IMG/VR virus record: IMGVR_UViG_3300033061_000668
Coordinates: 3,303 to 67,302 of that record
Origin: a virus
Lineage: Duplodnaviria > Caudoviricetes
Length of the DNA stretch: 64,000 nt
Direction: 5' to 3' (one strand)
Shown here: positions 2,460 to 54,839 of the stretch, piece by piece
How the letters are laid out: each line of letters starts with the position of its first letter
How positions within the stretch are numbered: position 1 is the stretch's first letter
Program-made: the position numbers and the translations under genes
Notes under the pieces: generated by a model
What the model saw: only the letters and a program-made list of their open reading frames with translations
What the model was told of the DNA's origin: nothing
Database searches by the model: none

Positions 2460-4246
2460 TTTTTGTACCTCACTGCATCTGTCGCTTCCGCACCTATTGG
2501 ACACCCATCCAACCATTCAGGACAGACGCTCATGAGACGTTCAATCTCACCAGCCGAAATAGAATTGTCAACTTCGCAAACAGCCTCGTCGTGAATATGC
2601 ATGACGACAGGGAAACCAGCTTTTTCCAAACGCAATACCGCTGCGCCCATGACGTCGCGAGCTACAGCCTGGACAAGATTCTCGCACAGCTTCCCTCCGT
2701 AGAATGGGATTTGTGGCCCTCCTCTTTCTACGCTAGCCGTCCATGCCGCTTTCCTAGCTTTACCACTTTTATCATACTTCTGCTTGTCTGGCCATTGCGA
2801 CATGATATTGCGGTAGGTAAGAACGCGACCGCTTGGAAGACCCACTTCCAACTGCTTGTCTGCTTTAGCCCGTTGGAAGTCGCCCTCCAGCTTGCGCCAC
2901 AAGTCCAAGATAGGTTGATTTCTGGTACGAAAATCATTGACGATCATATTTGATTTTGTTTCCGTAATGTCGATTCCGTATTGCATCTTGGCAATAAGAG
3001 CAAACTTCTTTGCCCCGGCACCGTAGCCAAGGCCAAGCACCATCGCCTTTACCAATTGATACAATGGAGCGTCAGTCTTTTTCAATGTCCCTTTTGGGCC
3101 ATTCCATAAACTCATGTTCTTAGCAGCCGCCTCATAGATGCCATAACCGTTCCTGATTGCGTCTAAAAGTCCTTCGTTACCAGACAACCAAGCAAGTACT
3201 CGAGGCTCAATCTGAGCCAAGTCACATATAACAAACTTCTTACCTGGCCGGGGTACGATGCAACCTCTTAGGTCTACTCCAAACATTTCATTGCGAGGAA
3301 GATTCTGAACGTTGAACTTTGAGTCACCAGACCAACGACCAGTATGAGCGCCCATATATTTCAATCCATAGCTCATCGTTCCGTCTGGTTTGATACGACC
3401 CTGCATGACCTTTAGCTTAGCCAGCAAAGAGTTTGCCTTACGCCAATCACGCATTATCCCAACAAATGGAACTTGCTCACCGTACTGAGATTCCCACAAC
3501 GCGCACTCCTCAGAGTTCTCCGCCAAAGACGTAGGCCATGGAATACCAGCTTTCGCACACTCTCTTCGAAATGCCTTCGTTGAAAGAACCACTCCGTCTG
3601 TTTCATCGATCCATGGTAATGAGTTCTCGCTCTCCCAAGTAACTTTTTGAAGAGCCTTAATCCCAGCGGAAACAGCATCTTGGTCAACCTGAATCCCGCG
3701 CCAGCCCATCTCAATGGTGTGTTTCGAAAGCTCGGACTCCGCCGGAAGCATATCGCTAGAGAACTTCTCATAAATACCAAGACATGCTTTGGCATCCTGG
3801 CGAGCATACTCCAGCACTTCTTTTCCAAACTCAGTACCATCGACATCACTCCACTTCTTGGAGTGCATCTTGTCACGAGGATCTTTGTCGATATGACGAT
3901 CTAGCAATTCCCTGGAGGCACCCAACAAGTTACGTGGAGCTCCCACGGCAACCGAAAGGTTTGCAGTACAGTTCCAAGCTACAGGCTTGGCTTGAACACA
4001 TCCTTGTTCCCGCAACCTTTCGATCACCGCGCCGTCGAAGCTGTAGTTATGAGCTACCCACTTGTGGCCATCAATCTTGGCCCACGGGGCTTTTTTAGGA
4101 CAGCCTACGTAGTCAACATCCGGTCCCTGAATCGCAACCATATAAATGTCTGAGGCTGGACTACGCAAATAGTGCCACTGCCCAAGTGTAGTGATTGATG
4201 TTTCCTTGTCGTAATATGTTTCAAAGTCAATTGCATATGTATTCAT
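2456..4246 (-). CDS. polA: Family A DNA polymerase with 3'-5' exonuclease
   Basis: ExoI IDFETY, ExoII AHNYSFD; motif A CDLAQIEPRV, motif B KAMVLGLGYG, motif C HIHDE. Confidence 0.93.
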   Translation of the reverse strand: MNTYAIDFETYYDKETSITTLGQWHYLRSPASDIYMVAIQGPDVDYVGCPKKAPWAKIDGHKWVAHNYSFDGAVIERLREQGCVQAKPVAWNCTANLSVAVGAPRNLLGASRELLDRHIDKDPRDKMHSKKWSDVDGTEFGKEVLEYARQDAKACLGIYEKFSSDMLPAESELSKHTIEMGWRGIQVDQDAVSAGIKALQKVTWESENSLPWIDETDGVVLSTKAFRRECAKAGIPWPTSLAENSEECALWESQYGEQVPFVGIMRDWRKANSLLAKLKVMQGRIKPDGTMSYGLKYMGAHTGRWSGDSKFNVQNLPRNEMFGVDLRGCIVPRPGKKFVICDLAQIEPRVLAWLSGNEGLLDAIRNGYGIYEAAAKNMSLWNGPKGTLKKTDAPLYQLVKAMVLGLGYGAGAKKFALIAKMQYGIDITETKSNMIVNDFRTRNQPILDLWRKLEGDFQRAKADKQLEVGLPSGRVLTYRNIMSQWPDKQKYDKSGKARKAAWTASVERGGPQIPFYGGKLCENLVQAVARDVMGAAVLRLEKAGFPVVMHIHDEAVCEVDNSISAGEIERLMSVCPEWLDGCPIGAEATDAVRYKK

Positions 4247-7905: not shown

Positions 7906-7933
7906 ATTGTGACCCCAAAAACCTAATCGTCAA
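7906..7933 (-). promoter_or_regulatory. Sigma70-like promoter TTGACG-N16-CACAAT
   Basis: 13 nt upstream of ATG 7892; member of a recurring promoter family. Confidence 0.6.
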
Positions 7934-32074: not shown

Positions 32075-35000
32075 ATGGCAGATCCTCTTGATCCTGAACA
32101 GACGCAAGAGGAAACCCTTCCGGAAACTGAACCGACTCAAGTTACGCCCCCAGTCCAAGCCCAACCAGATACTAGTTTAGACCAGTTTTTGTACGGGGAT
32201 AAACAGCCCCAACAATCCCAGCAGGATCTAAACACATTCCTTTACGGTACTCCCAAGGACAAAGACGCGATTGACAGTAGGCTCGCTGTAGCGCAGCAAG
32301 TTATCGATATGGCCAATGACCCAATGGCCACCGACTTATTTACTTCCATAGGCAGGAAGTTAACCGAGCCCGGTAAAAGTGAAGCCGCTTGGAAAGACTA
32401 CGAGAAAAATCTAGTTAATTTTGACCCAGCTCCTTACGAGAAGTTTAAGGAAGCCCAAGACAAGGGCGATTGGAAAACAATGGCCTCCACCGGCCTTCAG
32501 ATAATCGGTCAGGATTGGGGTAATTATATTGCCGGAGCCCTTGGGATGACAAATGAAGAACGCGAAAAAACGCAACAAAGTTACGGTGCAAAGATGATCG
32601 TTGGTAAAATTACCGATCCTAAAGAAGCAGCCGAAGCAATGGTGCTCACAGATAAGTACAAAGAAGATTTAAAAGCTGGAAAATCTATCGCCCCGGAAGG
32701 CCAAACGTCGGCTATGTCTTTAGGCGGTGGGCAGTTAAGTCTCAAGGTCGGAATGAATCTTACTCAGGCCGACGAATATTTAAAGACTTTACAGGACACC
32801 AAAACACAAGCCTTCGGACAAGGGGCTTTGCGTAATTTTGCTATCCAGTCTGGCGATGCTTTCATTCCGTTTGTTTCTGTTGGCGATATTATCATTGACG
32901 AAAAAGATAAAGATCAAGTTGCAAGGCGTGCGGCATTAGCCGAAGCGATCAATCAAACGATTTCAAAAGATTATTTCTATAGCACTGTTTCCGGGCAAGC
33001 CTTGGGTTCCCTTGGTAGTTTTATGGCAGCCGGAGCTGGCACAACATCATTACTTGGCGAAAGTGCTAACATGGCCGGGAAGGTAATTAAAGTACCCACG
33101 AAGCTTTCTCAGGGAGTGATGTATGGGTTGATGGGAACTTCGCAGTCCGTAAAAACTGACGAAAGAAATCTAAGCCCAATGGAACGACTGGCATCAATTG
33201 CCAGCGAATCTTTTGTTCTAGGTCTTTCAGAAGGAGGTGGAGATCTTCTTGGTGATCAAATTGACCATGGTGTAGCTAATCTACTTAAAACTCAAGCTAT
33301 GGCTAAACTCGCGCCAGAGTTTGCTCCGGTTGCGGGTGGGGTTGGAAAAGCATTATCCATTATGATTGGGGAATCAGCATCCGATCAACTGGATGCGGCA
33401 GCAAGAGGAAAAAATCCTTTTGAAGATCTGGCTCTTAGCTACGGGACAAATTTTGGTATTGGAGCTGGATTGGCTATTGCCGGATTTCCAAGAGCATTCC
33501 GCAGAGCACGGGTTATGGCACAAGCAGATGACTCTCTTGCAGCTGATTTTACTAAAGGACTTTCTGCAATCAGAAACGATACAAATAAAACAGATGAACA
33601 AAAACTTGCGGAAGTAGACACCATCAAACGTGCGTTTGGAAACAACGAGCGTGTCAACACTTTGATCGACCGCTCTTGGGCTTTGTCGGCCGTTGACGAG
33701 AACACAGCCCCCGAGACTCATCAGGTTCTTAAAGAATCCGTCGATGCAGCAAAGAGAGGAATTGTAGAAACTATTCTTGACGCAGGTCTCAATAAAGAAA
33801 ATCAACAAGAAAATGTTCAAGCAGTTGGGCAACAAACTGGCGAGTTGATGCCTGGAGTTCCTCTTCCTGGGGATCAAGAACAGGCCGAGCTGGAGAAGAT
33901 GAAGAATTATTTCTTAGCTGGGAACAAAGAAATTCGGCTCGAGAATACTATTGAAAACGCGGAGAAAATTAAATGGCTTGAGTCAAAGGGTTATATTTAC
34001 GGTAACTTAGTTGAGAATGGTTCAGCTTATGTTGTAAAAGGAGTTCGAATGGGCCAAGGAGATTTGGCCAAATGGTATGGTGAAGATGATCCTCGCGAAA
34101 GATTCCAAGGAGAAAAAGATGATCTCGATAAAGCAATCACAAAAGCGCATACGGGAACAAGCCAAGAACTGGATGTCAAGGTAGAAGAGATTCAGAACGC
34201 GGCTACCTATGATGACCTTCGAAGGATTGGTAACAAGTATCTTGGTGTTCCACTTACTGAAAGAATTCTTGAGGGAAAGCTGATTGAAACTCAAGACCGG
34301 ATTGCCGAAGAAAACGCAATCAACGCAAGACTTAAAGTTCTGAACTCCAATCTAGCGGCGATCAGAAAACAGCGCGAACAAAGTCCAGAAGATGAGCAGG
34401 CCCCGCTTGACGAAACAATCGCAAAGTTTGAGCAGGAGATTGAAAAACTAACTACTGGTAAAAAAGCTCAAGGCGAAGCAAACGTACTCCGTATCGTGAA
34501 AAATATGGAAGACCAGATCGATGAAGAAATTGATTCTGGTAAAATTGCGCCTGAAGTTTTAGCTAACCCGGAAGTAATTATTGCTATCTTAAATCCTAAG
34601 AATGCTTCCCACAGAGAACATGCGCTTTCTGAGCCAAGCCCGATTGAGGAAGACCCGACAAAACTTGGAGAAGCTTTTGATCTTGAAGATGCTCGTGTTG
34701 TCGAAAACTTAAAACGTATCGGTGCTATTGACGATCAGGGCCGCCCATTGATGACCCCTGCCGGGGCTATTGCTGCCTACGCCTTGGACAAGCGAAACTA
34801 TCTTACTAGCAAATCCCTTTCGGGTTATCAGTCATACGGTATTGCAGATCAGGTTTATAACGCCACAGTCAACAAAGCTTTGCTGGAACTCCGCAAGGGT
34901 AACAAGATTGCTCTTAGCACAATCTTCAATAGCAATCTAATTGACTTCATTCGTAAAGCCAAAGTCAGAATGCGTTCCGGAGTTGGGCTTGGCGCGATGA

Positions 35001-38000
35001 CGCAATTAAAAGAACAGGTTAAGAAAGCCGACCCAGAAAAATTGATTGAAGATCTTGGGCTGGACGAGAATCAAGCCCAGCTTGTAAAGGATACTTTTGA
35101 TGAGATATCTGCTACGGACGCCGAGTGGCAAGCCTCTCAGCCCGGAGCCGTCGCGACTCCATCGGTAACAGAGCGCGTAGAAGCCACAGCTATAATCGCC
35201 AACGAGATTGCCCCGCTATTTAGGCAGTCGCTTAAGTCTGATCTTGAACGGCTGGCATTTGATTCTCTTGTCGATTCGAAAGTAATGGCAAAGCTTGATT
35301 CGTTGGCTAGAGAACTTGGGTCAAATATCAACGAAGTTAAAACCATTCAACAAAATCTTCAGAAGCAATTGATCGAACAGATTAAAGCCGAGTACCGCGC
35401 ACGTCTTACAGCCGATAATCTTCCGTTGCTTCCCGCCCCCGAGGGAGAAGTCAGGAAGGCTGGAAATCTAACCAGCGAGCAACTCAAGCCAACTGAGAAT
35501 TTCTTTGCCCGAGCCAAAGAAGAAACTTTGATGACGGACGAAGAGCTTAAAGATTTTGAGGAACAGATGGCAGTCATTCGTTCTGGGCGTCGAGTTGAAG
35601 ACCTCCGCAACTTCCAACAGGAATTGATTGCTTTGATAGATTCAAAGTTAGGAATTGAGGATGGAGTATTTAGTGCTGATGTCCTTAATGATTGGGTAGA
35701 ACTTCTTGGTGGAGTGGAAAGCAACCCAGATATGCCGGGGCAACTTAATATTTCATTAGCGAAAGGTGTAATCACACAAGCCGACTACGATACTTTATTA
35801 AAACAACTTAACGCCTCAATGGATAAGGCTGTCAACCTTATCAGCAATGCAAAGGATATTAAAGATGTTAGGGCCGCGGCTCGTGAAGCCCGCGCTTCCT
35901 TTGTAAGAATCAACAACGCCATCCTACCAAAGGAGAAGAAAACAAATGCAAAACCAATCGCTAAACAAGCTGGCATATCTACCACAAGTGGATCTGACCA
36001 AACTAAACCCGTCTCTAAAGAACAGCAAAAAACAGCCAAGCCCGGGGAAGGTAAGCAACCCGCTAAGCCCGGAAAAACTAAGGGAAGTACTTCCGTGGCA
36101 GGAGGGGTATCTCGAGTATTACAAAGGATCGGTGCTGCCATACTCCCAAAAACCTTCTCAACCCCAAAAGGACAAGGAACCGTCCCCTACTCAGAAGATG
36201 TAATCACAAGCCTTGGTGGAAAGTTTACTGATCTTCAGGAGTTCAGCGCAGATCAAAGACAAGATACATCCGCGGCTATCGCCAGCATGGAAGGATCAAA
36301 AAACAAATCCTTCTATTTGGCGAACGGAGCTGGCACTGGGAAGACCCGTATTCTATTGGCCGTCGCTCAGCACTACCTTAACAAAGGAAAGAAAGTTCTT
36401 TATCTCACGGCTCATGATGCCGTAACTCCTGACTGGAAGAACCGCACGATTGGTGGAACCATCCAGCAGGACGCAGAGAGATTTGGTGTTCCGATTGTTG
36501 CTTATGGTGGAAAAGCCAGCGGTCTTAACGAGCTGACTTCAATTCCCTCTGGGACTGTTGTTGTGTCCACATACAACGACAAGTACATGGCCAAAATGCT
36601 TAGCATGGTCGATAACGACACAGTAGTTATTTTTGACGAGCATCATAATGGTAGGAATATTTTCCAAGCAAACCAGGAAGGAAACGCGGAGACTAAATGG
36701 CCCGTATTGATGGACAACATAGCCAAGAAAGCCGGCGCCGTGATGATGGCCTCCGGCACACCTTTTGATAAACCCGATCAGCTCCTGTCCCTGGCTCGGC
36801 TTGGTATCTTCGACAACATCTCCGAGGAACAGTTGCTGTTCAATCTTGGTTTTCAAAAATATGAACTCTCCACAAGCAACAAGTTTTATTGGGATCTTGC
36901 CCCTGGCGTTACGCTCGACGAGATGCAGAATCGAATGGAGAAGTATTTCGACAAGCTAGCTTTGAATGGAGTCTTCCGTTCTAGGTCGCTCAAGCTTGAT
37001 GGCGTCAACGTAGAATTTAAAAACGTCCCGCTTGACGCGGGAATCAGGGCAACGCTCGATTCCATAGCCGAGAGATTCGGCGGGAGCGAATCAATGGCAT
37101 CCCGCATGGCGGCTGTTGTGGCTCAGAAGCGGGCTCTTGAAACCTATAAGGTCAAGGCCGCGGCTCAGCAGGCATACGATGCAATCAAGCGTGGAGTGAA
37201 GCCGATTGTGTATGTAGGGTTTGTATCAAAGGAAGATTCGAAAGGCAACAAAGTAGATCAGGTTTCGAAACAGGTTGAGGAAGAACTCAAGAGAATTATT
37301 GCCCAAGATAATCCCGAGCTAGCCGCTAGGTTAAATGTTGCCCGCTTGTTTTCTGGCGGAGACGGCAAGCAACTAGCGATGGATAAGTTTAATAACCAAG
37401 GCGCTGATGTTCTGATCGCCACCGTTCAGATGGGCGGAACTGGCATTGAGTTGGACGACAAGGCCGGCGATCAGCCCCGCGAGATGATCATCATGTCGCC
37501 TCCAATCTCGGCCATCTCCGCCGTTCAGTTGATCTATCGTGTGTGGCGCGCTGATACAGCCAGTCGCCCAAACATTGTGTTCATGACCGCTGAACATCAG
37601 GTCGACCAAGAGCCTCTGGATAAGATGCGTCAACGTATGCGCTTGCTCGACGCCACTATGGGCGCTGGCTTCCAAGCTCTCAAAGGTGAAAGCAAATCTA
37701 AACTTTCAGAAGAATATTTAAGTACCCAGACCATTCCAAGTTCATTCTGGAAACTACCAGGAATTAATTTTGACGCACAAAGGACATTAAGTGATGCAGC
37801 TTTTGCGGCGAGGCATGAACTAGATTTGTTTGAAGAGGGAGAAGAAGGAGTAAGTAAAAGCGAATATAACACGATTAAAAATTGGTTAGATAAGAATGTT
37901 CCTGGGTATTATGAAGCTACCAAAATAACTTACGCCGGAAGAGGAACGGCAAAGGAAGAAATTCAAATTCCGGTCAAGGGTTCTCCGGAGAATATTAAAT

Positions 38001-41000
38001 TTGTAAACGATAAGATGACCAGCATCTTTAAGGGCGACTTCAAAGACGGAGTCGTAACGATTAAAGATCCTTCGGGCAAGACCGTGATGACGTACAAGTT
38101 CAACTTGTACTCTGGTTTTGACGGCCCAGCTCGCGCTGACTTCGGACAAGTCGATGAGGAAGATACCATCACTCTCAACCCAGATCGTATGGCCGCCGCC
38201 GCAAAAGTTCTCGGTGATAAGTTCGATGCATGGCTTCAGGCAGTCGTCCTAGAAGAAGCTCTTCATCTTGAGACGGTTCGTATGTGGAGAGCAGAGGGTA
38301 AAGACATTTCTGCCGAGTTAAGAAAAGTCGCGAGGGGAATGAGCGCAGAGACCAGGAGATCAAGAGCAAGACTTTATTTTGCTGCTCAAGGGTACGACTT
38401 AAACAATCCTGAGATAAAGGCAAAGATAGAAGCTTTGGCCGCGGATGACTTGCAGATTGCCTTCGAGGCTCTACGCCAAAACGCACAGCTCGCTTTGTAC
38501 GGGGTTGTTTCTGAGCAGCTTGCCGTTGTATCTGCGGCAGATATAGCTCGCGTAAAGGCCGTGGCGGATGAAGCCCTTCGTTCTGAAATAGATGATGAAG
38601 ACAAGACAATGTTCAGTACCATCCTGTCTTACATCAATAATATGCTCGCTGTTTTGAAGCGTGGGTTTGGTGCACCACAAGCGATGGCGAGAATCTCAAT
38701 GCGTGAAGCTCTTCAAGAAGCTGCGACCAGACTTACCAAAATCAAATCTGAATATACAGAACTTGCCGATACCACAGAACCAGAAGCCGCTCCATTCCAA
38801 GGATCGCCGGCACAACCTATCTCTCTTGGTGTCTTCGGAAGCTACGATCTTCGGGTCAACAAACTCATTGAGGATCACCTCGACAATCTTTCTGACAATG
38901 TGTTTGGGTTGAAAGCCGCAAACGATAGCGGTCGCACAGTCGACAAACAAGATTGGTTGTTCGCCATCGAACAAGCTTACAAGAACGGAACGATCACCAA
39001 GTTTGAGCGCAACATGTACAGGGCAGCCGGTCTTGATTCTTCATTTAATAATCGCGTCTCGTTGACCATGGTTCCAGTTAAAGCTCTCGAGATCGGTGAA
39101 GCCATGGAGACTGGAACGTTTGAGGGTAGCAGGAGCGCAGTTGCAATTCCTACAGTTGCGTTGACACCTTTCGCAACGGTCGAGAATGCACCAGTCACGG
39201 ATTCGAAGATTCAAGGAAAAGAACTATATCGGTTCACTCTCCGCGGGTATCTTCCGCAGAAAACACAGGCCAACTCGATTGACCAAGGTCTATCTCAAGG
39301 TGTAGCTAAACTTCTGTCTACTCGCGAGAAGGTTATCTACGAAGGTCAGGATTATACATGGAATAGACGTGGTGCTCTGGTTCGTGAGTTGCAAAAGCGT
39401 GGGGCAAACAATTACGTATCGAAAGTTATTCCGTCGGCAGCCGAACCAGTTTCGACTGTTCCTCCAATCACATTATCCGTTTCATTAACTGGAGATGTTG
39501 TAACAACCCCAGTAGCCGAGCCAACTCCAATCGCGCCACAAGCAGCCGGTCCTCGCGTGGTTGAAAGCCAGGCTATGAAGAACTTGCTTGGTACGTTTGG
39601 AGATAATCTTCCCGATGTTCCCTTCAAGCAGAGACTCATGGAGGATCTGTACAATAACTCAGTCACGATGGAACAACAGTTTGAAGATGCTAGGAATTAT
39701 ATTGAAGGACAGAATAGCTTTTCCGACGCCGTAAGACATTATCTTAGCAACTCAATCGACACTCCTCTCCCTATCCAAGCGGCTGTTGGGTTTGAACTTC
39801 TCCGCGTTCTCTCACCTCAAGCCAAGACTGATCGATATGCCCGCGAGGTTATGACGCAAGTCATGCTGGTTCAGAAGCAACGGTATGGAACTGATCCCGG
39901 AAGAACGGTTCAGTTGTGGGCAGCTCTTAGCGAGATGTCCGATAACCCCGAAGCCATGAAGATGTATGTCCATGAAGAACTATCCAGCATAGCCGCTGGT
40001 CGCTTGGAACCTTATAAGCGGGATCTGGACGACGCCAGGATTGGGTTGCAGGAAGCTGGGCGTAAAGCCGCTGATCGTGTCGCAACAGACCCGACTCTCA
40101 AATCTACCATTGACAAGATTGCCCAGCTCATTGAAAAGAATCGAAAAGAACAAAACTTTGAGGGGATCGATAAGGCAATGTATGACGTTATTCTTAGCGA
40201 TGAAGCTGCCGCACTCGGCGATGCATTCCTCGGTCCGATTGCTATAAAGCCACAGGCTAGCGATGTGCCTGGCTTTGACGCTGATGAAATTCGTCTTGCT
40301 CCCGAGCGGATTAAAAATCTTGGAACTCTGATTGCTAAAATTATCAATAGTTCCGACAACCCTGATGCTCTTCAAGCTGATTCCGAGAAACTTCGATCGC
40401 TTGTTTATCTTACTAAATCTTTGCGAAATAACCCAAATCAGGCTGAAGTCCGTCGGCTTGTTGAACTTTATTTTGATGCTGCTTTTACATACTCCCAAGC
40501 ATTGAGAGAAGCCGAAAGCAAAGGAGTTAAAATTGCTCCAATAACTTCTATTACAAAAGGTGAAGCTACTAAACAAGCGGAGCAAGCTAGAATTAGAGCA
40601 GAAGATGCCGCGCCAGTCATATTGAATACTGATTTAGGCAATGAGCTTTTGATGTACGCAGATGCTGCTGCCACTCTTTTCGAACGTAAATCCAAGAGAC
40701 TTCAAGAAGAACCTAAGAAAAAAGAATTTGTAGAAGAGATGGCCAAGATGATTCGCATGGATTTGGACAAACAAATTCGTGAAAAGGGCGGGCTAAAGCC
40801 TAAGTTTGAAAAACCAATTCCCCGGACGCCAGCTCAAAATATGTTGCTTGCCGTACAGAATATCGATGCAGTACGGATGTATATCGCTGAGATCCGGGAC
40901 ATCCTTCTTGAACGATACAAAGGAAAAGAAGCTGAACTCGTTGGTCTTGAGCCCTTGATCGACGATGCATTAGATCATCCTCTCTCGGTATCCGCAGTCG

Positions 41001-43753
41001 CCAAGACAATCAAGTCGCTTCAAAGCATCGGTGGTCCAAAGGTCAATGTACGCGAACTCATCCGTTCCAGCCGTGGTGATATTGAAGCGTTTGAAAATAA
41101 ACTAAGCGAGCTGCTGACCCAGAACTCTAAGCTCGATGCAGCTCAGATCAAGGTTGTCAATGATTACCTCCGCGATGCCATGGCCAAGTTTGTGGCAGAA
41201 GAACGTAAAAAAGAACTAGAACGTATCAAGAGACGGATTGAAGAGAAGCGTGGTGGGAAGAAGGCAAAGAGACAGGTTTCTTCAGCCCTTTCTAAATTGA
41301 TGGAAGCAGGAAACCTGGGTGTGCTGAGAGACCAAGAATTGTTTGATAGCATGCGTGTTCAGCTCGGGCTCCCCGAGATGACTCCGGAACAACTCGCCCA
41401 CCTAGACAAGATGATCGAGGATCTGCCCAACTGGCCAAAAGGTAGGGTACGTAACCAGAAGATCTCCAAAATGTACGAGTACGTAAAGCTACTATCCCCG
41501 ATGACTGTCACTGAGTTGCTCGTTAACTACCAAACGATGAACTTGTTGCTCGGTCTTGGAACGATTGGAATCAATGCCTCATCGTCGTTCGCCAATAACA
41601 TCGCGCAGTCCGCTATCATCGCGGCTCGTGGAGCAACCAAGGTTGTCACTGGGACTATCTTCAACAAACCTGCCGAGACGATTCGTGGTATCGGTTATCT
41701 CAAAGCCGCGATCGAAACCTACAAGCCTTTCACAAGCTGGAAGAAGGGCATCGGGCTGCAAGCTGCTAAAGAAATCTTCCTCAAGGGCGACTTCTCCAGC
41801 GTTCAAAGCGTGACAACGATGGAGATGGGTGGCGTCAATATGTTCGAAGCTTTCTCCAACCAGCTCGATTCTTATCTCAAGAAAAGTTCTGGCGCGATGA
41901 AGCCAGAGATCACGATTAAGACCCCGGGCTGGCTGGAGTGGATCGGTTTGAATCCTGAGTACACATTCAGTTTGGCCAACAAGTACGCCTGGAGCAAATT
42001 CAATCCCGCGACAGTCGGACCTTTCATTATCTTCGGTCGCGCCATGGCAGCCGGTGACGCGATGAATACAATCTCGGCCAAGAAGATGTATCAGACAGCG
42101 GAAGCGTACAACGTAGCTTTAAAGAAGGGGTTGACCAGTCGCGTCGAAGTCGAGCAGGAAGTAGCGAGGTTGCTGAACAACACGCCTGAAGCTCGCGCCC
42201 GTGCCGAAGCTATCGCAAAAGCCGAAAGCAAGGAGATGAATTATACTCCTTACCAGTACGCTCTACGTGTCGAAGAGATCATTGAACAGAACCGCCCGCA
42301 GGACGAGATCTCTCAGGACTTGATTAAGCGTACAGAAAAGTTCGCCGAACGCTCTAACTTCCGCAATAACTTTGAAGGTGTACTTGGAGCGGCGGCGGCT
42401 TCTGCCGTCACTTTGTCCAATGTATTTCCTCCTGCAAAGTTTGTTCTTAAGTACCTCAAGACAGGAGCGGCTTTGGGTAACGCGGCCTTGGATGTTGTTC
42501 CACTTCTCGGAACTTGGCGGTATTATAAAGGAATTGGAAACTTTGAGCGGATGCGTGACTCTAAATTCTTCTCGCCTCCCCCTCAGAAAGATACCGTCGA
42601 GCAGGATATCGCACTTGGAAAGATGTGGCTTAGCTACATTTTAGGACTTGGGTTGCTTGCCTTACTCCGCAAAGCTCTGGACCGCGACCCAGACCCCGAT
42701 TTCAATATCCATATCAGCGGGCCCAAAGACCCAGCGCAACGTAAGGCATTGCTTGCGGCAGGATGGAAAGCCCGTTCGATTCAGATTGGTAGCTTTGCCG
42801 ATGGCAATCCACGCTTCATAAGTTTTGAAGCTCTACCTCCGTTCCTTGCTGGCATGTTTATCCCACTCGGGGCTTTCACAGAAGCCATTCGTTACGAGAA
42901 ACGTTCCAAGCAGGAAGCACTTGTTCCCACGATTGCAGCCGCAAGCTGGATGACAATCTACGCCATGCTGGATTACTCTTTCTTATCCGGTATCCGCGGG
43001 CTTATCCAATTGGCAGCTCCATCCAACGGAGCCACAACCTCCACGGGACAGCTCGAGAATATCATCAAGTTTACCGGGAACGTTGCCTCCACATTAGTAC
43101 CCGGGTACGCAATCCTCCGAGACGTCGAGAAGATGGTCGAAGGTATCTATGGTCTGCCTACCGGAAGACTCTATCAAGACTCGTACCTGTCGGTGTTCCT
43201 AGCCAGCGTACCTTTTGCTTCGAAGGTCGGTGAGCCAGCTCTCGACTTCCTTGGCGGAACAACCCGCGCCAAGTTCTGGAACTCCGTCCCTTTCGTCCGC
43301 CGTATCATGACGACCGGTGCTGATACTTCCGAATACGCTCAAGGTGTCCGTACTGAGGACGCAATTCACGACAAGCTCATAAGCTTGTTTGCCAAAAATC
43401 AAACGGCACTGGATTGGGAAGCTGGACCACTAAAGGTATTCGCAGCCGCAGAACTGGCAACTAAACCGACAGTTGGTATATCGGAAATCTTGACCTTGAA
43501 ACGCGAGCTAACCGAAACTGAAAAATATGCTTGGTTGAAGAAAGCTTATCCCTACATTATCGAATCCCTTGGTGGCAATATCGAAGCTCTAGAATCCCTT
43601 GAGCCGGAAGAATTCAAATACGTGGTAGGCCAGCTAGCCCGTCCGTTCATGAAGCTAGCGCTTTACGAAGTCCTCGGTGAAGAGAACCAAAGCGGAATCA
43701 TCAACGAACTCAGCCCCGAGGCAACCAACGTATTGCCTCCAGAAACTAAATAA
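32075..43753 (+). CDS. Giant polyvalent internal virion protein (sigma-like domain, strawberry-notch-like SF2 helicase, degenerate zincin, LPD38-like C-terminus)
   Basis: 3892 aa open frame; ANGAGTGKT, FDEHH, MASGTP, QLIYRVWR helicase motifs; VLEEALH; GWKARSIQIG. Confidence 0.75.
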   Translation: MADPLDPEQTQEETLPETEPTQVTPPVQAQPDTSLDQFLYGDKQPQQSQQDLNTFLYGTPKDKDAIDSRLAVAQQVIDMANDPMATDLFTSIGRKLTEPGKSEAAWKDYEKNLVNFDPAPYEKFKEAQDKGDWKTMASTGLQIIGQDWGNYIAGALGMTNEEREKTQQSYGAKMIVGKITDPKEAAEAMVLTDKYKEDLKAGKSIAPEGQTSAMSLGGGQLSLKVGMNLTQADEYLKTLQDTKTQAFGQGALRNFAIQSGDAFIPFVSVGDIIIDEKDKDQVARRAALAEAINQTISKDYFYSTVSGQALGSLGSFMAAGAGTTSLLGESANMAGKVIKVPTKLSQGVMYGLMGTSQSVKTDERNLSPMERLASIASESFVLGLSEGGGDLLGDQIDHGVANLLKTQAMAKLAPEFAPVAGGVGKALSIMIGESASDQLDAAARGKNPFEDLALSYGTNFGIGAGLAIAGFPRAFRRARVMAQADDSLAADFTKGLSAIRNDTNKTDEQKLAEVDTIKRAFGNNERVNTLIDRSWALSAVDENTAPETHQVLKESVDAAKRGIVETILDAGLNKENQQENVQAVGQQTGELMPGVPLPGDQEQAELEKMKNYFLAGNKEIRLENTIENAEKIKWLESKGYIYGNLVENGSAYVVKGVRMGQGDLAKWYGEDDPRERFQGEKDDLDKAITKAHTGTSQELDVKVEEIQNAATYDDLRRIGNKYLGVPLTERILEGKLIETQDRIAEENAINARLKVLNSNLAAIRKQREQSPEDEQAPLDETIAKFEQEIEKLTTGKKAQGEANVLRIVKNMEDQIDEEIDSGKIAPEVLANPEVIIAILNPKNASHREHALSEPSPIEEDPTKLGEAFDLEDARVVENLKRIGAIDDQGRPLMTPAGAIAAYALDKRNYLTSKSLSGYQSYGIADQVYNATVNKALLELRKGNKIALSTIFNSNLIDFIRKAKVRMRSGVGLGAMTQLKEQVKKADPEKLIEDLGLDENQAQLVKDTFDEISATDAEWQASQPGAVATPSVTERVEATAIIANEIAPLFRQSLKSDLERLAFDSLVDSKVMAKLDSLARELGSNINEVKTIQQNLQKQLIEQIKAEYRARLTADNLPLLPAPEGEVRKAGNLTSEQLKPTENFFARAKEETLMTDEELKDFEEQMAVIRSGRRVEDLRNFQQELIALIDSKLGIEDGVFSADVLNDWVELLGGVESNPDMPGQLNISLAKGVITQADYDTLLKQLNASMDKAVNLISNAKDIKDVRAAAREARASFVRINNAILPKEKKTNAKPIAKQAGISTTSGSDQTKPVSKEQQKTAKPGEGKQPAKPGKTKGSTSVAGGVSRVLQRIGAAILPKTFSTPKGQGTVPYSEDVITSLGGKFTDLQEFSADQRQDTSAAIASMEGSKNKSFYLANGAGTGKTRILLAVAQHYLNKGKKVLYLTAHDAVTPDWKNRTIGGTIQQDAERFGVPIVAYGGKASGLNELTSIPSGTVVVSTYNDKYMAKMLSMVDNDTVVIFDEHHNGRNIFQANQEGNAETKWPVLMDNIAKKAGAVMMASGTPFDKPDQLLSLARLGIFDNISEEQLLFNLGFQKYELSTSNKFYWDLAPGVTLDEMQNRMEKYFDKLALNGVFRSRSLKLDGVNVEFKNVPLDAGIRATLDSIAERFGGSESMASRMAAVVAQKRALETYKVKAAAQQAYDAIKRGVKPIVYVGFVSKEDSKGNKVDQVSKQVEEELKRIIAQDNPELAARLNVARLFSGGDGKQLAMDKFNNQGADVLIATVQMGGTGIELDDKAGDQPREMIIMSPPISAISAVQLIYRVWRADTASRPNIVFMTAEHQVDQEPLDKMRQRMRLLDATMGAGFQALKGESKSKLSEEYLSTQTIPSSFWKLPGINFDAQRTLSDAAFAARHELDLFEEGEEGVSKSEYNTIKNWLDKNVPGYYEATKITYAGRGTAKEEIQIPVKGSPENIKFVNDKMTSIFKGDFKDGVVTIKDPSGKTVMTYKFNLYSGFDGPARADFGQVDEEDTITLNPDRMAAAAKVLGDKFDAWLQAVVLEEALHLETVRMWRAEGKDISAELRKVARGMSAETRRSRARLYFAAQGYDLNNPEIKAKIEALAADDLQIAFEALRQNAQLALYGVVSEQLAVVSAADIARVKAVADEALRSEIDDEDKTMFSTILSYINNMLAVLKRGFGAPQAMARISMREALQEAATRLTKIKSEYTELADTTEPEAAPFQGSPAQPISLGVFGSYDLRVNKLIEDHLDNLSDNVFGLKAANDSGRTVDKQDWLFAIEQAYKNGTITKFERNMYRAAGLDSSFNNRVSLTMVPVKALEIGEAMETGTFEGSRSAVAIPTVALTPFATVENAPVTDSKIQGKELYRFTLRGYLPQKTQANSIDQGLSQGVAKLLSTREKVIYEGQDYTWNRRGALVRELQKRGANNYVSKVIPSAAEPVSTVPPITLSVSLTGDVVTTPVAEPTPIAPQAAGPRVVESQAMKNLLGTFGDNLPDVPFKQRLMEDLYNNSVTMEQQFEDARNYIEGQNSFSDAVRHYLSNSIDTPLPIQAAVGFELLRVLSPQAKTDRYAREVMTQVMLVQKQRYGTDPGRTVQLWAALSEMSDNPEAMKMYVHEELSSIAAGRLEPYKRDLDDARIGLQEAGRKAADRVATDPTLKSTIDKIAQLIEKNRKEQNFEGIDKAMYDVILSDEAAALGDAFLGPIAIKPQASDVPGFDADEIRLAPERIKNLGTLIAKIINSSDNPDALQADSEKLRSLVYLTKSLRNNPNQAEVRRLVELYFDAAFTYSQALREAESKGVKIAPITSITKGEATKQAEQARIRAEDAAPVILNTDLGNELLMYADAAATLFERKSKRLQEEPKKKEFVEEMAKMIRMDLDKQIREKGGLKPKFEKPIPRTPAQNMLLAVQNIDAVRMYIAEIRDILLERYKGKEAELVGLEPLIDDALDHPLSVSAVAKTIKSLQSIGGPKVNVRELIRSSRGDIEAFENKLSELLTQNSKLDAAQIKVVNDYLRDAMAKFVAEERKKELERIKRRIEEKRGGKKAKRQVSSALSKLMEAGNLGVLRDQELFDSMRVQLGLPEMTPEQLAHLDKMIEDLPNWPKGRVRNQKISKMYEYVKLLSPMTVTELLVNYQTMNLLLGLGTIGINASSSFANNIAQSAIIAARGATKVVTGTIFNKPAETIRGIGYLKAAIETYKPFTSWKKGIGLQAAKEIFLKGDFSSVQSVTTMEMGGVNMFEAFSNQLDSYLKKSSGAMKPEITIKTPGWLEWIGLNPEYTFSLANKYAWSKFNPATVGPFIIFGRAMAAGDAMNTISAKKMYQTAEAYNVALKKGLTSRVEVEQEVARLLNNTPEARARAEAIAKAESKEMNYTPYQYALRVEEIIEQNRPQDEISQDLIKRTEKFAERSNFRNNFEGVLGAAAASAVTLSNVFPPAKFVLKYLKTGAALGNAALDVVPLLGTWRYYKGIGNFERMRDSKFFSPPPQKDTVEQDIALGKMWLSYILGLGLLALLRKALDRDPDPDFNIHISGPKDPAQRKALLAAGWKARSIQIGSFADGNPRFISFEALPPFLAGMFIPLGAFTEAIRYEKRSKQEALVPTIAAASWMTIYAMLDYSFLSGIRGLIQLAAPSNGATTSTGQLENIIKFTGNVASTLVPGYAILRDVEKMVEGIYGLPTGRLYQDSYLSVFLASVPFASKVGEPALDFLGGTTRAKFWNSVPFVRRIMTTGADTSEYAQGVRTEDAIHDKLISLFAKNQTALDWEAGPLKVFAAAELATKPTVGISEILTLKRELTETEKYAWLKKAYPYIIESLGGNIEALESLEPEEFKYVVGQLARPFMKLALYEVLGEENQSGIINELSPEATNVLPPETK

Positions 43754-48668: not shown

Positions 48669-48874
48669 CCTTGAACACCTGCCAATCGGAGGGCTTCATC
48701 TGCACCTGCCTTGTACACGTTCTGAAGAACGTCATCAAGGAACTCTGGGTCCAGTTCTAATTTTAGATTTTCCACCTTCTTATTGGCTGTGTCCACTTCT
48801 GCTTTGAATGCGATCTTATGGATGCTGTCACCAGCGCCCCAAAGAATCTCACCATTTACTTTTTTCATATTCAT
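48665..48874 (-). CDS. Hypothetical protein
   Basis: 69 aa, coupled. Confidence 0.6.
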   Translation of the reverse strand: MNMKKVNGEILWGAGDSIHKIAFKAEVDTANKKVENLKLELDPEFLDDVLQNVYKAGADEALRLAGVQG

Positions 48875-49509
48875 TCTAATGCCTCACTCCAGTACCGACT
48901 ATTTTTATACCCCTGCAACTTATCCCACCAGATGAATCTGGCGGTAGCCGCTGGGATACCGTACTCCTGCGAGCAGGTCTGCCACTCGTTCTCAAGCGCG
49001 AGGTAGTCAGTCCTGTTCACTTTCCTATCCCTCTTGTGGATAGACTTGAGCACACGACGATCGAGGCAAACAACGTTTGACTCCTCGTGATGCTTCATCT
49101 CCACATAGAAGCTTGACTTAGCAATCGCCAACCCTGGCACGTTGTCTGCAATCCTATCACGGTATTGCGTCAACGGCTCGTTGGCATAACGCTCGAAGAT
49201 GTGAGGCTTGGCCTGGAACATCTGATCAAACTTCCAGATGCTCACGGCTTTCGTCCGCCACAGTCCAGTCTTGGTTTGGTACAGTTCGAACTGTAACTTG
49301 CCGAGATCGGACTTCCACGAGTCGCGATTCTTGATTGCGTTAAAGGCTTTCACGTTCTGCTTCCAACCAAAGTTGGCCGCAAGAATCGAGAAAATCCAGA
49401 AGCGCCATTCGTCTTCTCGGGACTTGGGCTTAATCTTGTCCCAGTAGTTGACGTAACGGCTGACCTCTCGGGACTTCAGTCCCTCAAATACTTCACGTAC
49501 CCCAGTCAT
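48871..49509 (-). CDS. HhH-GPD superfamily DNA glycosylase-like protein
   Basis: FSILAAN, HhH VPGLAIAKSSF, VVCLDRRV, YLALE..W, RFIWW; start moved to ATG 49509. Confidence 0.65.
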   Translation of the reverse strand: MTGVREVFEGLKSREVSRYVNYWDKIKPKSREDEWRFWIFSILAANFGWKQNVKAFNAIKNRDSWKSDLGKLQFELYQTKTGLWRTKAVSIWKFDQMFQAKPHIFERYANEPLTQYRDRIADNVPGLAIAKSSFYVEMKHHEESNVVCLDRRVLKSIHKRDRKVNRTDYLALENEWQTCSQEYGIPAATARFIWWDKLQGYKNSRYWSEALE

Positions 49510-49717
49510 AAAACAAGGGAAGCGTGACTCCGTCGGGAGACGGATGCTGTCGCACCTCGCCTCCATGCTTCGTTGCATCGTTGTTCAAGGCTTCCATCTC
49601 CTCAGAAGTGTAGCCTCGGATGGAGTCATTACGGATACCCGTGATAAAGTCCACCCACGTTTCATCGATCGATAGGAACTTTTGTTCCGTTGGTTTTGTA
49701 ATACAATAACAGTTCAT
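49493..49717 (-). CDS. Hypothetical protein
   Basis: 74 aa, coupled. Confidence 0.5.
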   Translation of the reverse strand: MNCYCITKPTEQKFLSIDETWVDFITGIRNDSIRGYTSEEMEALNNDATKHGGEVRQHPSPDGVTLPLFYDWGT

Positions 49718-51626: not shown

Positions 51627-52478
51627 TTAGCGATTCGATACTGCGTCGAGCAACTGACGAGCCGCGGTACGGATTGCCGTAACAAGGCTGTCGTCGCTGT
51701 CAGTTTCATCAGTCTCGACATCTTCTTCGTTGTAGATGTCATCTTCTGTGGAGTCATACGACTCAGCGTATGTCTTGGGTAGTGGGCCCGTGTAGTCCGC
51801 GACAACCTCATACTTTGCAGTACGAAGCTTCTGGAACTCGCAGTCATTGGGCACCGACACCACATCCTCGGGGTTGATCTTGACGATCACGACCCGACGA
51901 TCGGCACCACCGAAGTTGCCAGCGTAGTCGATCGAGCCAGCATGGAATCCGTAAGAACATCCGTTCTCGGGATTGTCGTCCACACTGCGACGAGCGATAC
52001 TCAACACCTGGCCGACTCTGTTCGAGAACTTGCCAGTGTGGTGGTCCATATAGTTCTCATCAACCGACTTGTAAGCCAAGAAACAGCCATCCTCAGTGAT
52101 CGGCATGTTCTTGTGCTCCAAGAATTGGTAGAGTTGAGCACGACTATTGTGGCTCGGATTGTTGTAGAGATTCTCCAAGAACCGAGTCATCGGTTCCACT
52201 GGTAGATTCTCCTGCATGAAGTTGAGGATTCGTTTGGCGATACGCTCGTCAACGATCTCACCGCGGTGATACACCGAACCGTCTTTCACCTCGACGGAGT
52301 TGCCGAGATACGCATTGAGTGCGTTGGTGATGTCCATCAATTGCTCGATGTCACCCTCCGCACGACCCTCTGCGATCGCGTTAATTACCATCTTTGCATT
52401 TGCGTGGTCACGACGGAGAGTGTGAGACTTCCCGTTGATGACCGCTGTTATTGTTTCGTCAGTTATGATGTAGTTCAT
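51627..52478 (-). CDS. rIIB: RIIB-like protein
   Basis: PITEDGCFLAYK, VDDNPENGCSYGFH, VKINPEDVVSVP, KLRTAKYEVV. Confidence 0.9.
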   Translation of the reverse strand: MNYIITDETITAVINGKSHTLRRDHANAKMVINAIAEGRAEGDIEQLMDITNALNAYLGNSVEVKDGSVYHRGEIVDERIAKRILNFMQENLPVEPMTRFLENLYNNPSHNSRAQLYQFLEHKNMPITEDGCFLAYKSVDENYMDHHTGKFSNRVGQVLSIARRSVDDNPENGCSYGFHAGSIDYAGNFGGADRRVVIVKINPEDVVSVPNDCEFQKLRTAKYEVVADYTGPLPKTYAESYDSTEDDIYNEEDVETDETDSDDSLVTAIRTAARQLLDAVSNR

Positions 52479-52499
52479 ACTTACTGTGTCCTTTCGTTT

Positions 52500-54839
52500 T
52501 TATTTTGTTTTGCGAGCTGCATCTACAAGATGCACATACTCGACAGTGCCTTCTGTTGCATACTCCATTACATCTGTCTGCCAGTTGTTGTGGCGGAATA
52601 ATGGGTACCGCGAAGCTATTTTAGTTCCCTCACCTTTCAGATCATAAGAAGGTTTAGGTAACAACGCTTTGAGTTGTTGATACACGCCTTTCTTATCATC
52701 GTTATTTGATCGGCCAAGAGCCCAAGTATTCTTTGGTTCTTCAAGCCAAGCTGGCAAGGTTTTCTCATCATTCTCTAAAGCAGCAACCATTTCCAGAACC
52801 TTATCCATAAAGATTCGGAATGGGCTGTCGGACTTGATGTCTTTGAGTGGACCAGTCTTTGGATTAGCCCAACGATCAAAGGAAGATCGCTCAAAGAAGC
52901 AACCCTCTTTCCTAAGCCTATCGGTGTGATACGTTCCACGAGAGTTGAAGAAACCCAAGACAGCATAACGATCAGCAATCTTCTGAGCCTTATCGGGATT
53001 AGCTTTGAGAAAAGCTCGTGTCCCCTCCTCGATTGCATCCTGCAATTTAGTCCAAGTTGCATCAACCTTCTTGTCGACATCAGCTTCCTTCACGCCATAG
53101 ATTTGATCGCAATACCCGATTGCTTTCAAGTATTCTTTTGCTCGATGCAGAGGATAATGCTCCTCCATATCAAAGTCCTTACCAGGCATTGACCACTTGA
53201 ATTGGTCGAGTGTTACGTAGACTTTCTTGCCAGTCGTAGGTGCTGCTGAGATTCCCCAATAGTCACTACGCTTGTCTTGGCGTTGATACTTGGCATATAA
53301 AGCAAACACATTCCCCTTGGTGTGTTTGACATTCTTGTCGTATTCAACTTCATCACCATTCGCATCGACACCTTTCTGCTTTGGCGGAGGCGTTGGCAAA
53401 GCCGACACCTGTTGGAATGTCATAGTTGCAAACCACGGGAGAGTCTTGTTGAGAAACTCTCGGCCACCGTTCTTATAGTTGATGATAGTTACGGTTGCCC
53501 CAGCTGGCCCGCTGTTCATCAGCCAGTGACGAACGCGAGCTTCCCCCGAGCCAGTGCCAGTATCATTGATCATCACGACTGCGTCTTTGTGGACAATCAG
53601 TTCATCGACCTCACGATCAACATTGAACTTAGCCTTGCCCCAACTACGCTTGCTTATGCTCATAGCACTGATGCCGTGAGACTTAAGTAACTCGATTTCA
53701 GTCTGATCTTTCTTGAGAGGCGAAGCACACAAGGGGATGCGATTATCGTCATGCATATCGATTCCCTTCCACTTCAGCTTGCCTTTCAGCTTCTTGACAA
53801 TGCCCTCACGGAAACTGGAGGAACTATATCCGCCAGTGCCAGTGAACCTACGCAAGATCAAGTGAGCTTGGAAGTAATCTGGAGCCGATTGAATGTCGGC
53901 AAGCAAGGTCGACCCCATCGAGTCAATGACTGGATTGAGATGCTTGACCAAGCCTTGGATTGTCTTCTGCGAATACTGCAAGTCCTCACGAGACGGAGCG
54001 ACTTGGACATCGCCAAGATCGACCCTCACGTAGACTCCAGCGTCAATCAACTGCTTGATTACTGGTGAGCCAGAGAAGTCAGACTTGAGCGGGTAAAGCA
54101 CAAGACCCATCTGGAGCCAGCTTTGGCCTTCACCATTGAAAGACCAGTTGGTTCCTTTGATAATGCCATCTTTGTATGTCTGAGTGGCATACTCTTTCTT
54201 CTCTTCTGGCGTTAGGTTGACGATGTCAGGCCGAACATCAAAGACACGATAGACCTGAATCGCAGTGCTGCGAAACCGACTAATGTCTTGAGGCCGAACT
54301 GGAATCGAGATCTCAACACCAGAGGGTTCGTTGGTCTTGGTCTCGCTTAACAGCGATGCCTTGCCCACCTCACTCTCGTCGATGTGACAATTCCAGATAC
54401 GCTTGACTCCGTCTTTGTGGGGGGTAACTCCGTTGTAATCGGTTACCGTGATGGCATCCGTATAGGCACCATACGATTTGCAACCGATACCAAGACAGCC
54501 CGTGAAGGCGTTGCTTGCCCGCTTGTCGCTACCACCATACGAGCAGAACAACTCTTGGAACTTCTCCTTGCCAAGTCCAGGGCCGAAGTCACGAATCGTG
54601 AATACTGGCTTCATACCAGTCGGAAGCGAGACTTGGATGGGCTTGTTGGTTTTACCATTGAGGATGTGACCCTCGCAGGCATTGGTGCCATACTCACGCA
54701 CAACCGCTCTGATCGGGTCAGAGTAAGCTTTGCGTAGGATACTGGCGATGTGACCGAGGTTGGACGCATCGATCTTGTAGTCGATCGTGTCGGTAACCCC
54801 GCTCGATACTGGCGTGTTTCTAGATGACGTAATTATCAT
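52500..54839 (-). CDS. rIIA: RIIA-like protein (GHKL/Hsp90-like ATPase N-terminus)
   Basis: VVREYGTNA, IRDFGPG, GCLGIGCKS; adjacent to rIIB. Confidence 0.88.
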   Translation of the reverse strand: MIITSSRNTPVSSGVTDTIDYKIDASNLGHIASILRKAYSDPIRAVVREYGTNACEGHILNGKTNKPIQVSLPTGMKPVFTIRDFGPGLGKEKFQELFCSYGGSDKRASNAFTGCLGIGCKSYGAYTDAITVTDYNGVTPHKDGVKRIWNCHIDESEVGKASLLSETKTNEPSGVEISIPVRPQDISRFRSTAIQVYRVFDVRPDIVNLTPEEKKEYATQTYKDGIIKGTNWSFNGEGQSWLQMGLVLYPLKSDFSGSPVIKQLIDAGVYVRVDLGDVQVAPSREDLQYSQKTIQGLVKHLNPVIDSMGSTLLADIQSAPDYFQAHLILRRFTGTGGYSSSSFREGIVKKLKGKLKWKGIDMHDDNRIPLCASPLKKDQTEIELLKSHGISAMSISKRSWGKAKFNVDREVDELIVHKDAVVMINDTGTGSGEARVRHWLMNSGPAGATVTIINYKNGGREFLNKTLPWFATMTFQQVSALPTPPPKQKGVDANGDEVEYDKNVKHTKGNVFALYAKYQRQDKRSDYWGISAAPTTGKKVYVTLDQFKWSMPGKDFDMEEHYPLHRAKEYLKAIGYCDQIYGVKEADVDKKVDATWTKLQDAIEEGTRAFLKANPDKAQKIADRYAVLGFFNSRGTYHTDRLRKEGCFFERSSFDRWANPKTGPLKDIKSDSPFRIFMDKVLEMVAALENDEKTLPAWLEEPKNTWALGRSNNDDKKGVYQQLKALLPKPSYDLKGEGTKIASRYPLFRHNNWQTDVMEYATEGTVEYVHLVDAARKTK

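Follow-up and report, generated by a model that had tools for sequence, protein, structure and literature searches.

Early transcription in phages is secured by an injected polymerase (N4, phiKZ and crAss-like phages), by injected modifiers (T4 Alt) or by strong host-type promoters. Here we investigated a segment of a giant protein, P0001 (3892 amino acids, aa), that is encoded on the plus strand (positions 32075..43753) of a 64,000-nucleotide (nt) stretch of viral DNA (Duplodnaviria; Caudoviricetes). This stretch, hereafter the window, comprises bases 3303-67302 of the 67,302-bp IMG/VR virus record IMGVR_UViG_3300033061_000668, which has direct terminal repeats and is rated complete. The segment is predicted to fold into two domains resembling regions 2 and 4 of sigma factors (sigma-2 and sigma-4), and we discuss whether it may act as a sigma-like adaptor when the DNA enters the host.

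The protein as a whole can be compared with gp50 of phage N4 (Schitoviridae), which is composed of an N-terminal domain (1-919), a polymerase domain (1008-2104) and a C-terminal domain (2123-3500), is ejected together with the DNA and initiates early transcription (PMC13492108, PMC13434306). Both are polypeptides of about 3500-3900 aa from genomes of roughly 70 kb with terminal repeats, and in both a central nucleic-acid enzyme follows an N-terminal part of about 900 aa. However, this enzyme is a helicase in the window protein, in which no polymerase domain was detected; while N4 brings its own polymerase, the window phage would have to recruit that of its host.

A second likeness is to the polyvalent proteins of phages and conjugative elements (e.g., P1 DarB-like proteins), which are thought to be delivered with DNA and have been proposed to jump-start transcription (PMC5512222). 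Shared features are the giant multidomain organization, a Strawberry-notch-type SWI2/SNF2 helicase, an ART-PolyVal domain in one homolog and the position of the gene among virion genes. No sigma domain is included in the survey of polyvalent proteins, from whose text the word "sigma" is absent (PMC5512222), and a later survey of jumbo phages by the same group reports sigma factors exclusively as free proteins, with ART and GNAT domains in polyvalent proteins. A preliminary description of the window had remarked that this architecture is not known to have been described; likewise, our reading of the literature turned up no sigma module reported for polyvalent proteins.

Among sigma factors, the extracytoplasmic function (ECF, group 4) proteins such as S. 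coelicolor SigR, E. coli RpoE and P. aeruginosa AlgU resemble the module in having two helical domains of similar sizes and in the same order (an order also common to group-3 sigma factors), with a basic conserved domain 1, a variable linker and an HTH (helix-turn-helix) part to which the module gives a weak profile match. The module differs from them in the absence of any match to Pfam or hidden Markov models (HMMs), in being embedded at aa 889-1114 of a 3892-aa protein, in its longer linker with an extra helical hairpin and in the signature residues of regions 2.2 and 2.3, which are not conserved. Phages also encode sigma factors as separate proteins and minimal sigma-like factors with an HTH (T4 gp55/gp33, phage SigF/RpoE-like proteins), which redirect host core RNA polymerase, and several of them appear among the weak structural matches described below (e.g., 7d7d_F). 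Unlike the module, these proteins are small, free and made after infection, and are not domains of virion proteins.

Predicted Structure and Conservation of the Module

The preliminary description had placed a complete sigma70/ECF-like domain at positions 34780-35395. This interval corresponds to aa 903-1107 of the 3892-aa open reading frame (ORF) and indeed encloses both sequence strings that had been quoted for it, the first at aa 923-965 (nt 34841-34969; IADQVYNATV from aa 923, FIRKAKVR from aa 958) and the second at aa 1057-1103 (nt 35243-35383; LERLAFDSL from aa 1057, QKQLIEQI up to aa 1103). For structure prediction with AlphaFold2, we used an alignment of nine sequences, consisting of the window and eight of the related loci. 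The mean predicted local distance difference test score (pLDDT) was 81.5 for aa 870-1130 and 92.6 for aa 981-1121, the latter with a predicted template modeling score (pTM) of 0.86.

In the model, domain 1 (aa 889-971; 34739..34987, plus strand) is a basic four-helix bundle resembling sigma-2 that contains the first string, IADQVYNATVNKALLEL...FIRKAKVR. It is followed by an acidic and poorly conserved linker (aa 972-1029; 34988..35161, plus strand), which begins with a disordered stretch (pLDDT <50 at model residues 100-115) and continues as a helical hairpin packing on domain 2. In the model of the C-terminal half, the hairpin helices (7-13 and 18-40) are part of the compact domain for which the pTM of 0.86 was obtained. 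Domain 2 (aa 1030-1114; 35162..35416, plus strand) is a four-helix HTH resembling sigma-4 and contains the second string, LERLAFDSL...QKQLIEQI. Just before domain 1 lies a motif composed of a helix, a beta-hairpin and a helix, as assigned by DSSP (L..LGAID..G..MTPA, aa 873-891; 34691..34747, plus strand), in which L, G, A, I and D are invariant in the alignment. The Met of LMTPAG was rejected as an internal start, since some homologs have a Leu in its place.

The model was compared with 48,161 PDB representatives by a structure search that is independent of Foldseek, and the best 50 rows were examined. For the full model, these rows contained about 11 sigma chains, including M. tuberculosis SigH and S. 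aureus SigB, which matched across both domains. For domain 1, a sigma factor stood at rank 1 of the 48,161 chains (best matches 1h3l_B, 5uxx_C and 8b3z_A). For domain 2, region 4 of sigmaE was found at rank 4 (69/69 residues, root-mean-square deviation 2.8), with region 4 of SigA, SigR and AlgU also listed; the best sigma matches were 2h27_D, 5fgm_A and 8z6g_B. Sigma factors of cells and phages, as well as TFIIB, were likewise frequent among the weak rows of Foldseek searches against PDB and BFVD. On re-examination, the Foldseek list was headed by sigma28 (141 residues, model 25-240), FliA/FlgM, AlgU (143/174) and SigL (160/174), the leading chains aligning over 134-160 residues across both domains, and TFIIB, Brf and cyclin chains were interspersed among the sigma rows. 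LuxR/GerE-type HTH proteins and DEAH helicases were absent from the structural lists, although absence from the lists is no exclusion.

The arrangement of a region 2-like part before a region 4-like part, as had been described, was recovered in the alignments: the sigma-2-like domain lies N-terminal to the sigma-4-like domain with a flexible linker in between, and whole sigma chains (6pmi_F, 6in7_B, 6dv9_F and 5zx2_F) align collinearly over both domains. The modeling supports, with good confidence, a predicted four-helix bundle followed by a four-helix HTH, whose best or near-best structural neighbors are sigma-2 and sigma-4 in the order found in sigma factors.

The same family was named by language-model features. 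Of the 30 named ESM-Atlas clusters nearest to domain 1 (region residues 20-104), 23 bear Sigma70_r2 (PF04542), one of them viral, with a top score of 0.91, and the nearest named cluster for the whole region was also Sigma70_r2 (score 0.87). As shuffled proteins also reach such scores (see below), we regard this result as a lead and not as proof; however, the family named is the one that had been proposed beforehand.

Additionally, conservation and charge follow the pattern of sigma factors, with a conserved basic domain 1, a variable linker and a near-neutral domain 2. Conservation reaches a local peak in domain 1 (0.46, compared with 0.33 for the protein overall and 0.42 for the helicase), while values of 0.22 and 0.28 show the linker and domain 2 to be variable. 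In charge, domain 1 is basic (+3 to +11) and domain 2 near neutral, and sets of ECF sigma-2 and sigma-4 domains are alike in this respect. Divergent homologs (e.g., ...LPNDEDKAIFDSTYEGG...AAEINKSLQTVTRRQ) are more region 4-like than the window protein itself.

We favor the sigma reading because a single a priori hypothesis was returned by two different sequence-derived methods, and because both domains were matched in the right order with a fitting pattern of conservation and charge. A very diverged sigma-like module within a polyvalent protein is plausible, which is not to be equated with a demonstrated sigma factor. Tentatively, we propose that aa ~889-1114 form a sigma-derived or sigma-like adaptor that acts locally at DNA entry. 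The giant protein would be packaged and then ejected with the DNA, like N4 gp50 and other polyvalent proteins. The module would serve as a tethered adaptor by which the protein and the incoming end of the DNA dock to the core RNA polymerase of the host, to DNA or to both, and this docking may help the first round of transcription to start beside the neighboring Strawberry-notch-type helicase. The module is not a free, exchangeable sigma subunit. The preliminary description had also considered that the protein could block host RNA polymerase at entry. We consider a global block unlikely, because the protein would be delivered in few copies per virion.

Sequence-Family Tests and Alternative Explanations

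A number of results weigh against the sigma reading. At E ≤ 10, the Pfam models Sigma70_r2, r4 and r4_2 (the latter two PF04545 and PF08281) did not match aa 870-1130, either string alone or eight homologous regions, and Sigma70_r2 (PF04542) did not match three whole giant proteins either. A six-frame translation of the phage genome contained nothing matching PF04542 or PF08281 at E ≤ 10, whereas control genomes did match. HMMs of ECF sigma-2 and sigma-4, run with --max on 14 full-length homologs, found nothing at the region and only scattered negative scores, and phmmer and profile searches of PDB sequences yielded no sigma factor, only chance matches (aldose reductase, a designed repeat protein). 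Foldseek returned no match at E ≤ 0.001 against PDB or BFVD; the check by AlphaFold and Foldseek suggested in the preliminary description thus provided a confident model and sigma-rich rows, but weak ones. ESM scores of 0.9-0.91 were also reached by 4-10% of shuffled proteins.

At the level of residues, neither the D..QE core-binding signature of region 2.2 nor the aromatics of region 2.3 are conserved. The D..QE positions read D.VYNA in the window protein and vary among homologs (in the hhalign register, which is a low-confidence alignment). The invariants of the family, R940, G942, L947 and R965, differ from the sigma signature, and the predicted recognition helix varies freely among homologs. 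Packaging of the giant protein in the virion and its delivery with the DNA are, moreover, inferred from gene position and analogy only.

Profile-profile comparisons gave a graded picture. The ECF sigma profile was built from E. coli RpoE and FecI and 28 ECF genes out of 40 sampled genomes; homolog queries with RpoE or RpoE plus FecI gave near-identical RpoE orthologs only and were unfit for a diverse profile. The whole region aligned with this profile collinearly over 169 columns and in the register proposed, with a score of 20.5 and a probability of 1.6%, which likewise counts against the assignment, as does a helicase window from the same protein that served as a control and scored 20.2. Domain 2 reached a score of 19.6 against ECF sigma-4 (P = 0.0026), a value reached by 0 of 100 column shuffles (null 9.0 ± 1.5), yet ranking just 3-4 among 124 real windows of the same protein. 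Domain 1 scored 12.7 against sigma-2, was equaled by 5 of 100 shuffles and ranked 6 of 124, which is not significant. For the sequence match made by eye, the part resembling region 2 is therefore not significant and the part resembling region 4 is marginal. Support for a sigma assignment comes from the predicted fold and the language-model features. Of the module described initially, the domain order was recovered in our analysis, and the predicted fold and the ESM features of domain 1 point to sigma factors, whereas the family models gave no Sigma70 match and the profile scores were marginal. A "complete sigma70/ECF domain" is not established, and membership by family model fails.

The likeness could also exist at the level of the fold alone, the segment being a generic DNA-binding module (a basic helical bundle and an HTH) that has no contact with RNA polymerase and would hold phage DNA, e.g., the leading genome end, or load the downstream helicase. 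We consider this possible, if somewhat unlikely. Sigma-4 is itself a plain HTH, and in the module the HTH is the only place with a signal at the sequence level. The strongly basic domain 1, the helicase 280 aa downstream and the lack of conserved core-binding residues all fit DNA binding, as do the DnaA C-terminal domain and the DUF6456 HTH proteins that we found among the weak BFVD rows and the TFIIB, Brf and cyclin chains among the sigma rows. On the other hand, the best 50 rows for domain 2 hold four sigma-4 structures, yet no LuxR/GerE or other common HTH families, two methods placed domain 1 with sigma-2, and few basic residues are found in the helix predicted for recognition in most homologs, which does not favor a dedicated DNA-binding function.

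It is doubtful that the segment contributes structural helices to an internal-core or ejection protein, has neither a nucleic-acid nor a polymerase function and matches sigma factors by chance, as small helical bundles may do. Such a segment would not be expected to return the single a priori hypothesis at rank 1 of 48,161 chains for domain 1, to recover it in 23 of 30 ESM clusters and, with the order of the domains correct, to match sigma-4 in full length through domain 2, nor to be conserved in domain 1 as much as the helicase core. A winged-helix plus ratchet-like accessory domain of the helicase, as in DEAH/HA2-type proteins, was suggested by weak matches of HA2_N, the winged-helix family of DEAH helicases, in 6 of 9 homologs over the short L..LGAID..G..T motif (E 0.017-0.16). 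We rejected this reading and hold it to be very improbable: the match spans 15 residues only (7-21) and lies below the cut-off, the structural lists contain no DEAH helicase, and the module is located upstream of the helicase across a 280-aa linker of low conservation, the helicase being of the Strawberry-notch (Sno) type and not of the DEAH type.

In a stronger version of the sigma reading, which we regard as improbable, a true and very diverged sigma module delivered by the capsid would capture the core RNA polymerase of the host where the end of the genome enters and initiate the first phage transcripts. Such a module may read promoters of the form TTGAC-N16/17-CANNNT, with C at -12. The window contains 10 such sites, compared with 4.9 ± 2.0 expected, a number reached by 0 of 100 shuffles; they are mostly intergenic and include positions 7906, 9566, 17972, 22025, 48203, 63229 and 63421 (span 7906-63448). 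The T-first form occurs at 7 sites, compared with 4.2 expected, and is not significant. These promoter-like sites with C at -12 look real and unusual. However, they look like primary-sigma-type promoters, which the host holoenzyme could read, and a phage sigma factor is therefore not needed for them; this adds to the points against a sigma function. In the related loci, counts of TTGAC-N16/17-(C/T)ANNNT were at expectation, and these loci, which consist mostly of the giant gene, are uninformative on co-variation between the promoters and the HTH helix. If a true sigma factor were present nevertheless, the start of transcription would be tied physically to the ejection of DNA and to the neighboring SWI2/SNF2-type motor, and a third strategy would join the virion polymerases of the N4 type and the modification of the host enzyme of the T4 Alt type.

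The Giant Protein Family and Its Phage

P0001 is a polyvalent-type protein encoded in the late/structural block. Its helicase of superfamily 2 (SF2) and Strawberry-notch type (aa 1393-1873; 36251..37693, plus strand) confirms the SF2 helicase that had been noted beside the module, about 280 aa downstream, and is the only Pfam finding in the whole protein (AAA_34, E 1.2e-8, and ResIII, E 1.4e-8, at aa 1393-1583; Helicase_C_4, E 0.002, at aa 1772-1873). The helicase domains are also present in the homologs P0005 and P0007. LPD families of Pfam gave no match in the giant protein at E ≤ 1. P0007 (4289 aa) additionally bears an ART-PolyVal domain (PF18760, aa 2497-2655, E 7.3e-7, 30.5 bits at a cut-off of 31.2), which is absent from the protein of the window; within the family, effector domains are therefore swapped in the central part of the protein. 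Because of ART-PolyVal in P0007 and the Sno-type helicase, we assign the giant family to the polyvalent proteins (Iyer et al., PMC5512222), i.e., very large multidomain proteins of phages or plasmids with typical effector and enzymatic domains.

A phmmer search against 1.84 billion representatives identified eight proteins, all giants or fragments thereof; six of them are giants of 3762-4629 aa that carry the module at an equivalent position. A profile search for a free-standing module among proteins of 140-468 aa (5.8 billion searched) gave no match at E ≤ 1. We thus found no free-standing form of the module and no bridge to annotated sigma factors.

Between module and helicase, a low-complexity stretch rich in K, P, G, T and S (window 35900-36110, aa ~1280-1345) falls in the least conserved part of the giant protein (identity 0.12-0.24) and could act as a flexible tether or be a site of processing. 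The sole strongly hydrophobic segment of 19-20 residues (aa 3512-3531, window 42608-42667) lies in the C-terminal quarter, which is well conserved, and could be an element that inserts into a membrane for ejection.

The plus-strand block of the genome (9.6-47.7 kb) encodes the terminase large subunit and virion structural proteins followed by the 3892-aa ORF, with an endolysin/endopeptidase-like gene directly 3' of it. The minus-strand arms encode a family A DNA polymerase, a DUF5906 protein, a PD-(D/E)XK nuclease, an SF2 helicase, an Ogg-type 8-oxoguanine DNA glycosylase-like protein (window 48871-49578, minus strand; PF22175, E 7e-9) and the adjoining rIIA (779 aa, phrog_612, E 1.8e-89) and rIIB (283 aa, phrog_609, E 2.1e-68) (window 51627-54839, minus strand). 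The carrier of this rIIA/rIIB pair is a 67-kb phage with no cultured relative. No RNA polymerase gene was seen among the ORFs scanned, and a search for tRNA genes in the phage found none.

DNA and protein searches of INPHARED with the module region, the N terminus and the C terminus as queries revealed no usable relative; the sole match was to a marine fosmid (34% identity over 97 aa). The lineage has no relative among 50,697 deposited phage records. In IMG/VR, a search with the full-length alignment retrieved 11 relatives (L002-L012) of 38-82 kb, all 11 of which contain the giant gene, while the module region alone as a query retrieved zero loci.

Implications for Early Transcription

If the proposed reading is true, a sigma-like adaptor that forms part of a polyvalent protein injected by phages would add a fourth means of securing early transcription, and the range of the sigma fold would be widened to a covalently tethered form beyond the reach of HMMs. 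It would also provide a testable function for one segment of a large and uncharacterized family of giant proteins. If, instead, the likeness is at the level of the fold only, the segment would be a conserved module of the DNA-binding type and an addition to the domain catalog of polyvalent proteins.

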